Origin: a virus
Reading direction: 5' to 3' (one strand)
Virus record (IMG/VR): IMGVR_UViG_3300029203_000004
Length of the DNA stretch: 64,000 nt
Part shown: one piece after another, positions 27,732 through 28,770 of the stretch
Position numbering within the stretch: the stretch's first letter is position 1
Layout of the letters: each line of letters opens with the position of its first letter
Position numbers and translations under genes: made by a program
Notes under the pieces: generated by a model
Told to the model about the DNA's origin: nothing
Seen by the model: the letters and a program-made list of their open reading frames with translations, nothing else
Databases searched by the model: none

Positions 27732-27830
27732 ATGCAAGACTATATTTCAGATTGGTTCATTCCTATGGATTTCGGTAATGATATGCCGGACGAAGAACCT
27801 AACGGTGAGGATAACTTTAATTTTGAATGA
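27732..27830 (+). CDS. possible acidic 32-aa peptide
   Basis: Hand translation gives MQDYISDWFIPMDFGNDMPDEEPNGEDNFNFE; ATGA coupling to the radical-SAM gene. Confidence 0.3.
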   Translation: MQDYISDWFIPMDFGNDMPDEEPNGEDNFNFE

Positions 27831-28615
27831 TTATGAAAATAGTAAAAAACAAGAGTTTTGGGAATGGTATCGTGTATTGCTTACGGCTAGATGATGGAAT
27901 GCTTGTAGAAACCACTGACACATTCTTGCCGTACTACACAAAAGACGCTATCGGAAGGAAGCAGAACTTTTTGGATAACGAAAATCTTGGAAACCGTTCG
28001 GAAAGGTGGATGATTGGAGTTTCAACCATGAGTGGTTGTCCTGTACGCTGTAAGTTCTGCGCTACTGGTAATATGAAGAAATACCGCAATCTTACTGCGG
28101 ACGAGATAGTAGACCAAGTTTTATTTGCCATTAAGCAATCTGGATGCTGCCCGAAGGATTCAAAGGAATTTAAGATTAACTACACTCGTATGGGCGAACC
28201 TTTCTTAAACATAGAAGCCGTAAAAGAAGCTATTGAGCGGATTACTGAAATATACCCGAATACACATCATTATGTTTCTACGATTGGTATTAAAGGTAGT
28301 GATTTTTCTTTTGTAAAGGGAAATGTAACATTGCAAATAAGTTTGCATAGTTTCGATGAAGAAAAGAGAGACTGGCTTATTCCTTATCCGAAGAAAATGT
28401 CTATTGAGGAACTTGGGCAAATAAGAACAGAAAGTAACTTGAAAACCACTATCAACTTAACATTGGTAGATGAATCAGACTTTGATGCGGATAAACTGGA
28501 AAAGTATTTTGATAAGAAGCACTTCTTTGTGAAGTTGTCCCCAATCAATCCAAACAATATATCAGAGAAAAACAAACTCGGCAATGGAATTATCGAGGGA
28601 GTTAATTTAGTATAA
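27827..28615 (+). CDS. RlmN/Cfr-family radical SAM enzyme, core part (N-terminally short, C-terminus split off)
   Basis: [30 protein letters not shown] (CX3CX2C), [25 protein letters not shown] and LSPINPNN are colinear with RlmN/Cfr motifs. Confidence 0.8.
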   Translation: [262 protein letters not shown]

Positions 28616-28635
28616 ACATTTTAATTGACAGAATC

Positions 28636-28770
28636 ATGAAAGAGATTAAAGAACAGCTTGAAAAAATGGGCTATGACTACGCAGTAGCAATAGCAACAAA
28701 GTCAGAGATTGAGAACGGAGCCGCTTGCGGTCAGCTTTCAATTATAGTTGAAGATGAAACAGAAAAATAG
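28636..28770 (+). CDS. 44-aa ORF encoding the RlmN/Cfr C-terminal AACGQL cysteine motif
   Basis: MKEIKEQLEKMGYDYAVAIATKSEIENGAACGQLSIIVEDETEK versus E. coli RlmN ...[23 protein letters not shown]. Lies 20 nt after the core ORF stop, in a different frame. Confidence 0.6.
   Translation: MKEIKEQLEKMGYDYAVAIATKSEIENGAACGQLSIIVEDETEK

Follow-up and report, generated by a model that had tools for sequence, protein, structure and literature searches.

A phage RlmN/Cfr-like radical SAM core with glycine at the resolving-cysteine position and the putative methyl-carrier cysteine on a separate small gene

How might a radical S-adenosylmethionine (SAM) enzyme of the RlmN/Cfr type be built when one of its two catalytic cysteines is replaced and the other is encoded by a different gene? 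A locus in a 64,000-nucleotide stretch of gut-phage DNA (IMG/VR record IMGVR_UViG_3300029203_000004, the whole of which is referred to as the window) raises this question. On the plus strand, an open reading frame (ORF) for 262 amino acids (27827..28615) encodes a compact RlmN/Cfr-type radical SAM core that ends with ...EGVNLV at a TAA stop. An intergenic spacer of 20 nucleotides (nt; 28616..28635) separates it from a plus-strand ORF in another frame (28636..28770), which encodes a small chain of 44 amino acids (GYDYAVAIATKSEIENGAACGQL) with a helix, a beta strand and a cysteine loop, homologous to the RlmN/Cfr C-terminal tail. The CX3CX2C motif for the [4Fe-4S] cluster and SAM (CPVRCKFC, 28037..28060, plus strand) has its cysteine codons at 28037-39, 28049-51 and 28058-60. 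Seven residues ahead of the first cluster cysteine, at the position of RlmN Cys118, there is a glycine (GGA, 28016..28018, plus strand). The small chain has one cysteine, Cys31 (TGC, 28726..28728, plus strand), which is invariant and aligns with the methyl-carrier Cys355 of RlmN. A first-pass annotation, made from the DNA letters alone, had quoted the motifs, the stop at 28615, the 20-nt gap and the 44-residue ORF in the other frame, all of which are seen in the sequence. It had left the choice between a decaying gene, a genuine two-chain enzyme and an enzyme with altered chemistry or targets. Residues of the large chain are numbered here from the second methionine (27833, giving 260 amino acids), which is the start in most relatives.

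The large chain belongs to the radical SAM superfamily, and among the families of this superfamily it is nearest to RlmN/Cfr by sequence and by structure. It matches the Pfam family PF04055 (Radical_SAM) above the gathering score (E=1.9e-9), the NCBIfam RlmN model TIGR00048 with E=2e-23 and 83 bits, and the NCBIfam Cfr models with E=1e-17 to 1e-15, while the next radical SAM family in NCBIfam follows at 1e-5. Among PDB sequences, phmmer found only RlmN/Cfr matches, with the RlmN entries 6fz6, 4pl1, 5hr6 and 3rf9 at E=1e-13 to 1e-12. An AlphaFold2 model computed from a 61-sequence alignment (mean predicted local distance difference score 93, predicted template modelling score 0.90) has the partial TIM-barrel fold with SAM-binding motifs that, together with CX3CX2C, characterizes the superfamily. 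Its ten best Foldseek matches in the PDB were all RlmN or Cfr, with E=7e-13 to 2e-7 (6fz6 with E=7e-13 and TM 0.66, 3rfa, 4pl1, 5hr6, and the Cfr structure 9p0p with E=2e-7). MqnE was the next family (4e-4), and all fold matches were radical SAM enzymes. The cluster cysteines C69, C73 and C76, the MGEP motif and S170/H172 are conserved in the large-chain alignment. These results agree with the first-pass description of the 262-residue ORF as an RlmN/Cfr-like core.

Two regions of the large chain depart from RlmN as a whole. RlmN profile positions 1 to ~75, which form the N-terminal helical domain, are unmatched, and the phage protein starts at the barrel-flanking beta strands; the accessory domain is missing, as had been suspected. 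A clade-specific insertion of ~24 residues (27923..27994, plus strand) separates the N-terminal beta strands from the strand on which the glycine lies. According to the alignment and the AlphaFold2 model, this insertion has no counterpart in RlmN, and model confidence is lower there. SPASM and RRE domains were not matched in the large chain by the hidden Markov model (HMM) libraries or by Foldseek, and PADLOC defence models (for example, those of prokaryotic viperins) did not match either chain or three relatives.

The small ORF on its own gave no significant match in Pfam, NCBIfam, PHROGs or PDB sequences, and its homology becomes visible only by concatenation and by profile-profile comparison. 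When it was appended to the large chain, the RlmN match grew from profile position 299 to 351 of 355, with a gain of ~8 bits, and the Cfr matches reached 337 of 338. In the phmmer alignment of the joined chains, GYDYAVAIATKSEIENGAACGQL falls on the RlmN C-terminus with Cys31 on Cys355 (3rf9). A profile built from twelve diverse small ORFs matched the profile of canonical RlmN C-termini with 94.8% probability (E=5e-8, 38 columns). The aligned region spans helix, strand and cysteine loop, and the phage loop is two residues longer than that of RlmN. Together, the Cys31 alignment and the profile comparison uphold the earlier proposal that the equivalent of Cys355 sits on the 44-residue ORF. Conservation of the small chain is uniform along its full length. 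The ratio of nonsynonymous to synonymous substitution rates (dN/dS) has a median of 0.04 (114 pairs, 21 distinct nucleotide versions), which indicates strong purifying selection on the small ORF.

The small chain also occurs in other forms. AACSQL in place of AACGQL is a common variant (L054, L055, and a cluster, P0152, found on 358 contigs, one of them named Parabacteroides merdae). In one cluster (P0228) the small ORF runs past its stop into the region equivalent to 28748-28849 of the window, and another (P0122) shows a partial internal duplication. The small ORF of Vibrio phage D479 (L003:3303-3584) contains two tandem cysteine-loop modules (...GFDAGLAIATDAEV.AGAACGQMAIL, twice), so that one product has two catalytic-type cysteines.

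In order to distinguish a conserved split from a single insertion or deletion, a check that the first-pass annotation had proposed, the relatives of both chains have to be compared. In the protein database, more than 100 clusters of large chains with 260-261 residues and 73-92% identity all end with ...GVNLV, and the few longer entries owe their extra length to the N-terminus only. Free-standing small ORFs of 38-46 residues form more than 200 clusters, several of which are present on 280-440 contigs each. Of the 80 IMG/VR relatives fetched, 76 lent themselves to scoring, and all 76 have the stop together with a small ORF of its own. The spacer was 17, 19 or 20 nt, and the relative frame was +2 in 68 loci and +1 in 8. 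Neither an unsplit sibling differing by an insertion or deletion nor a conserved frameshift route to a fused protein was found among these 76. A conserved frameshift or read-through was rejected as a candidate, as spacers and frames vary and the 76 relatives offer no fused route.

The pair is also found far from the window. Kehishuvirus tikkala, a crAss-like phage with 71% identity, has the large chain and the small ORF, as do Moorella phage MTATph1 and Vibrio phage D479. In the Pectobacterium phages Arno18, Arno162 and Wc4 and in Yersinia phage P778, the same two genes are present with an unrelated ORF of ~90 residues between them. Metagenomic members down to 30% identity still have a small ORF adjacent to the large chain. 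A scan of species-representative genomes identified 50 loci, some of them in isolated strains of Lepagella muris, Segatella copri and Bacteroides congonensis; their presence in bacterial isolates hints at prophages. Of these loci in genomes or metagenome-assembled genomes, 45/50 have glycine at -7 (that is, seven residues before the first cluster cysteine), and 43/45 of the latter have a separate small ORF. The small ORF lies ~1.2 kb downstream, behind two inserted genes, in 17 loci, and upstream of the large gene in one. The clade is found in abundant human-gut Bacteroidales phages, Kehishuvirus among them, and, in addition, in phages of Firmicutes and Proteobacteria.

Independent fusion events connect the two products. 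In P0244 (L094:44-991, L095:140-1087) and P0268 (L096:67-2154), the cysteine-loop module is fused to the N-terminus of the core, which amounts to a circular permutation relative to RlmN. Such natural fusions are a Rosetta-stone indication that the two products work together. A further relative of 601 residues (P0242), 59% identical to the large chain, carries an intein (Hint plus LAGLIDADG) at the CX3CX2C motif (...CPVRCAFC/LLPESK..., with the slash marking the intein), and the location of this intein within the cluster motif speaks for the gene being functional. Homing-endonuclease-like sequences were seen near other members: a protein of 438 residues on 32 contigs (P0099) is called with an HNH_3 homing-endonuclease-like domain as an N-terminal fusion to the large chain, and in Kehishuvirus an HNH endonuclease gene lies ~600 nt downstream of the module (L001:4404-4943).

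The split pair is a real, widespread and selected two-gene system, probably a working enzyme, and not a broken gene. The idea of a decaying gene is refuted, as all 76 scored relatives are split, the arrangement persists to 30% identity and in phages whose hosts belong to different bacterial phyla, and the small ORF is under strong purifying selection. The alternative in the first-pass annotation, a genuine two-chain enzyme, is strongly supported by the conserved split, by selection, by the distant pairs and by the fusions.

The residue at -7 sets the clade apart. Residue-level alignment to 3rf9 places the phage glycine (Gly62) on Cys118, the position that is alanine in the C118A structures 4pl1 and 5hr6. 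Gly62 is invariant in 39/39 aligned chains of the split clade, the only conserved cysteines of which are the three cluster ligands. Beyond these ligands and the small-chain cysteine, neither chain has another conserved cysteine, and the earlier reading of a glycine at the Cys118 equivalent holds for all 39 chains without a substitute. Cys18 (VYCL) was considered as a replacement resolving cysteine and rejected, as the Moorella, Vibrio and other members have His, Ala or Leu there.

Among full-length representatives at 50% identity, a cysteine loop within the same chain was found in 0/23 chains with Gly(-7), in 24/29 with Cys(-7) and in 22/30 with another residue; two of the five Cys(-7) exceptions merely have a CGM variant of the loop motif. 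No fused Gly(-7) chain with a C-terminal cysteine loop was found among them. As far as these alignments tell, glycine in place of Cys118 and displacement of the cysteine loop go together. Compact phage RlmN-like proteins form a series of three types: Cys(-7) with a fused GGCGQLW tail (for example, Stenotrophomonas phage ANB28), a tail of the SNCGQ or AACGQ type that is still fused while Cys(-7) is absent (for example, Bacteroides phage Versailles and P0306), and Gly(-7) with the tail encoded by its own gene, as in the window. A lysine, Lys234 (FVK-LSPINP), replaces the Asn of the RlmN xNLIPxNP motif. It is present in 97-100% of chains that lack Cys118 and not in chains that have it; this apparent link between Lys234 and the loss of Cys118 is a correlation only.

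A sister subfamily (P0294, P0310, P0320, P0321, P0330, P0340, P0347, P0353, P0354 and P0389) also has an invariant Gly(-7) and keeps the helix and strand of the tail. It has neither a cysteine loop nor a small ORF and is hence RlmN-like without either catalytic cysteine. This subfamily appears to be cellular, judging from P0294 (L008:2132-2971), the only member whose context was examined, which neighbours pyruvate kinase and greA.

Of the characterized enzymes, E. coli RlmN (PDB 3RFA and 5HR7), the C2-methylase of rRNA A2503 and tRNA A37, is the nearest match to the phage pair in sequence and fold. Both have the CX3CX2C, MGEP, SxH and xNP motifs, the N-terminal beta-strand barrel extension and the C-terminal helix-strand-AACGQL loop with the methyl-carrier cysteine, which the phage supplies in trans. 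The differences are that RlmN is one chain and the phage enzyme two, with no Cys355 equivalent on the large chain; that RlmN has the resolving or general-base Cys118 where the phage has an invariant glycine; and that RlmN has an N-terminal helical (HhH/winged-helix-like) RNA-binding domain of ~75 residues, whereas the phage has none. The phage pair has, in turn, the 24-residue insertion before the glycine strand, two more residues in the cysteine loop, and Lys for Asn in xNLIPxNP, and its bit scores do not reach a third of the RlmN family cutoff. Cfr (PDB 9P0P), the C8-methylase of rRNA A2503, shares the class-A scaffold, with significant HMM and fold matches, and uses a two-cysteine logic with Cys338 as carrier and Cys105 as resolving residue. 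It differs from the phage pair in the same ways as RlmN, and its match is weaker.

Phage-encoded relatives are closer in architecture. The 'RlmN' of phage ANB28 (319 residues) and the radical SAM protein of phage Versailles (335 residues) have the same core and no N-terminal domain. ANB28 keeps Cys(-7) and its fused tail, while in Versailles and the 'SNCGQ' class, as in the window protein, Cys(-7) is missing. ANB28 and Versailles are nevertheless single-chain proteins; only the window clade pairs an invariant Gly(-7) with a cysteine loop off the core C-terminus. A short free protein that supplies the C-terminal catalytic residue of a larger radical enzyme in trans has a precedent in GrcA/YfiD and Y06I of phage T4. 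These are small stand-alone proteins with homology to the glycyl-radical domain at the C-terminus of pyruvate formate-lyase. GrcA serves as a spare part when the full-length enzyme has been damaged, and its fold, chemistry and role are unlike those of the phage small chain. Unlike the partner of GrcA, the phage core never has a tail of its own. Given the low curated score and the lack of Cys118, of Cys355 on the same chain and of the N-terminal domain, we do not file the pair as RlmN or Cfr. We describe it here as a split subfamily of its own among the class-A-like radical SAM enzymes. No paper on RlmN-like enzymes that are split or phage-encoded came up in our search of the full-text literature, which left most subscription journals outside its coverage; the first-pass annotation had likewise not recognized such a split as described.

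Canonically, the sulfur of Cys355 receives a methyl group from one SAM, which the 5'-deoxyadenosyl radical from a second SAM converts to a thiomethylene radical (PMC9692996). This radical adds to C2 or C8 of adenine to give a protein-RNA crosslink (PMC9692996), and Cys118 (Cys105 in Cfr), now seen as a general base, is indispensable to resolve it (PMC9692996).

The two phage ORFs probably encode the two chains of a single working class-A (RlmN/Cfr-type) radical SAM enzyme that has its carrier cysteine in trans and resolves the adduct with no Cys118. The homology, the split, its conservation and selection, and the fusion events come directly from the analysis; docking geometry, methyl-carrier chemistry, substrate and route of resolution are what we infer. 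The [4Fe-4S]/SAM site would lie in the partial TIM barrel of the 260-residue chain. The chain of ~40 residues probably docks in the manner of the RlmN tail, with its beta strand extending the core sheet at one edge, which would set its single cysteine on a flexible loop inside the active site. By homology, this cysteine would be S-methylated by one SAM, and the 5'-deoxyadenosyl radical of a second SAM would turn the S-methyl group into a thiomethylene radical. The radical would then attack the substrate at an sp2 carbon; an adenine of tRNA, rRNA or a nucleotide is the most plausible target. With an invariant glycine at the Cys118 position, resolution of the adduct must differ from that of RlmN. 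Lys234 is one candidate for it, exchange or consumption of the free cysteine-loop subunit would be another, and the ~24-residue insertion beside the glycine strand is a further candidate element. The invariant glycine also makes altered chemistry or targets more likely.

The genomic context provides hints to the substrate. One contig (L089:1224-5393, ENA contig k141_3244962) has the split module within an array of 8 tRNA genes, with the large chain (P0255) at 4001-4852 and the small ORF at 4862-5005. The tRNAs are three Leu, two Ser, one Arg and two to which ARAGORN assigns 4-nt anticodons. A tRNA array likewise surrounds the fused homologue of Stenotrophomonas phage ANB28 (L006:2486-3445). 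In an IMG/VR relative with a large chain 91% identical to that of the window, a tRNA with an insertion of ~110 nt directly follows the small ORF (L021:3949-4135; Rfam RF00005, 31 bits versus a gathering score of 29), and L030 is similar; in some relatives, the site after the small ORF is apparently a tRNA locus. The window itself has a tRNA-like remnant just downstream of the small ORF (28826-28900, plus strand), with a 7-bp acceptor stem containing one A·C mismatch and a perfect T arm (GACAG-TTCGATT-CTGTC). It has no proper D and anticodon arms and is reported by ARAGORN only at relaxed thresholds. A tRNA gene at this site, suspected from the T arm, was rejected: ARAGORN at default settings and Rfam at E<=10 returned nothing, and the element is not conserved in relatives.

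Other lineages have a four-gene cassette of the two chains and two inserted genes (L102:2280-3468, L110:2286-3501, and 15 further genome loci, namely L105, L106, L109, L112-L120, L122, L124 and L135). One inserted gene encodes a radical SAM protein of 255-263 residues with non-canonical cluster spacing (NCNMNESTG.NGNCYFC) and weak best matches to MoaA and viperin, and the other a class-I SAM methyltransferase of ~150 residues. P0268 has a second radical SAM domain at residues 404-521, and in L094 a separate gene for an NrdG-like radical SAM protein of 239 residues follows P0244. The window has only the two-gene form; neither a second radical SAM gene nor a methyltransferase partner was found there or in its close relatives.

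The window module lies upstream of, and next to, exonuclease and helicase genes. An upstream ORF of 32 residues (27732-27830) overlaps the first ATG of the large ORF (27827-27829) via ATGA; the start of the large ORF is ambiguous between this overlap at 27827 and the second ATG (27833), which is favoured by the annotation of the relatives. A tail-fibre ORF of the window matches other Bacteroides phages. For this reason we do not assign the window to Crassvirales; it is not demonstrably crAss-like.

Several observations weigh against the reading as a two-chain class-A enzyme. The curated equivalog cutoffs are missed by far (83 bits for the large chain alone and 91 with the small ORF, versus 290 for RlmN and 468-550 for Cfr), so function cannot be transferred from the RlmN model. 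The RNA-binding N-terminal domain of RlmN is absent. As Cys118/Cys105 is reported to be indispensable for turnover (PMC9692996), RlmN-like methyl transfer is not guaranteed. The substrate hints conflict: some lineages have tRNA arrays around the module, others a MoaA/viperin-like radical SAM protein and a SAM methyltransferase within it. 'RNA methylase' as a label, with A2503 and A37 as proposed targets, is a lead only.

Adjacent ORFs in different frames that jointly cover one protein are the usual signature of a frameshift error, and could come from a pseudogene, from a sequencing or assembly error, or from a programmed frameshift that restores a single RlmN-like chain. We find this barely credible. 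Among the scorable relatives, cultured phage genomes as well as hundreds of independently assembled sequences retain the stop, and neither the length of the spacer nor the relative frame is constant. Some lineages have whole genes between the two ORFs, and others have them in reverse order. In addition, dN/dS of the small ORF is 0.04, and a fused Gly(-7) chain with a C-terminal cysteine loop was not found. A short ORF beside a radical SAM gene is also the classic layout for a ribosomally synthesized and post-translationally modified peptide (RiPP), and NCBIfam gave weak peptide-maturase matches far down the list. That the small ORF is a RiPP-like precursor modified by the radical SAM protein, and not a subunit, is however very improbable: the peptide is homologous to the structural C-terminal tail of RlmN/Cfr across helix, strand and loop, is conserved over its whole length and not in a leader/core pattern, is fused to the enzyme in several lineages, and accompanies a core without a SPASM or RRE domain.

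The remaining alternatives accept two chains and differ in chemistry or substrate. In one, the thiomethylene adduct would be the end product for want of a resolving cysteine, and the peptide of ~40 residues would be sacrificed, either joined covalently via -S-CH2- to an adenine in the RNA or DNA of the host or spent as a single-use co-substrate; a small, cheap and separately translated cysteine peptide would make stoichiometric use affordable. RlmN C118A traps the same crosslink, and Cys118/Cys105 is reported as indispensable for resolving it (PMC9692996). In addition, the invariant glycine is strictly tied to a cysteine loop outside the core chain, neither chain holds another conserved cysteine, and the D479 small ORF has its two tandem units. 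We nevertheless rate such suicide chemistry lower, as quite unlikely, because the loop is still fused in many relatives without Cys118, namely the SNCGQ and P0306/P0387 classes as well as P0244 and P0268 with their N-terminal fusions. There, an unresolved adduct would tether the whole enzyme, which is unlikely as a widespread outcome, and Lys234 is a plausible alternative base. A two-chain enzyme that acts on a free nucleotide or on phage DNA, as a step of a modification pathway and not on rRNA or tRNA, is unlikely too, but deserves more weight. The missing RNA-binding domain, the second radical SAM protein and small class-I SAM methyltransferase between the chains in 17/50 genome loci, the nucleoside triphosphate-acting MoaA and viperin families as best matches of that second protein, the fusion of the P0268 core to a second radical SAM domain, the adjacent second radical SAM gene in L094, and the exonuclease and helicase genes beside the window module would all fit. 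On the other hand, the MoaA/viperin matches are weak (~50 bits versus cutoffs of 180-325) and do not identify the substrate, the extra genes are missing from the window and its close relatives, the L089 module and the fused ANB28 homologue are inside tRNA arrays, and all characterized relatives act on RNA.

Returning to the two-chain enzyme with its carrier cysteine in trans, a bolder version is possible, which we put forward tentatively and consider more doubtful than the two-chain arrangement itself. The pair may represent a new mechanistic subclass in which the carrier cysteine is on a free exchangeable peptide and the resolving cysteine is dispensable, with a non-thiol base (for example, Lys234) or stoichiometric attachment of the peptide in its place. 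In some phages, it may be one step of a multi-enzyme pathway (with the second radical SAM protein and the SAM methyltransferase) to an undescribed modified adenine in tRNA, nucleotides or DNA.

Class-A radical SAM methylation, by RlmN and by the antibiotic-resistance enzyme Cfr, is understood as a single-chain, two-cysteine ping-pong reaction for which Cys118/Cys105 is held to be indispensable. A large and strongly conserved family that lacks Cys118 and takes the other cysteine from a separate gene is a natural experiment on how protein-substrate adducts are resolved. The two-piece system is also tractable, as the cysteine-loop peptide can be synthesized, labelled and mutated apart from the core. 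The family points, moreover, to a phage-directed modification of tRNA, rRNA, nucleotides or DNA. Both genes are now annotated as 'hypothetical', or the ORF of ~40 residues is not called at all.

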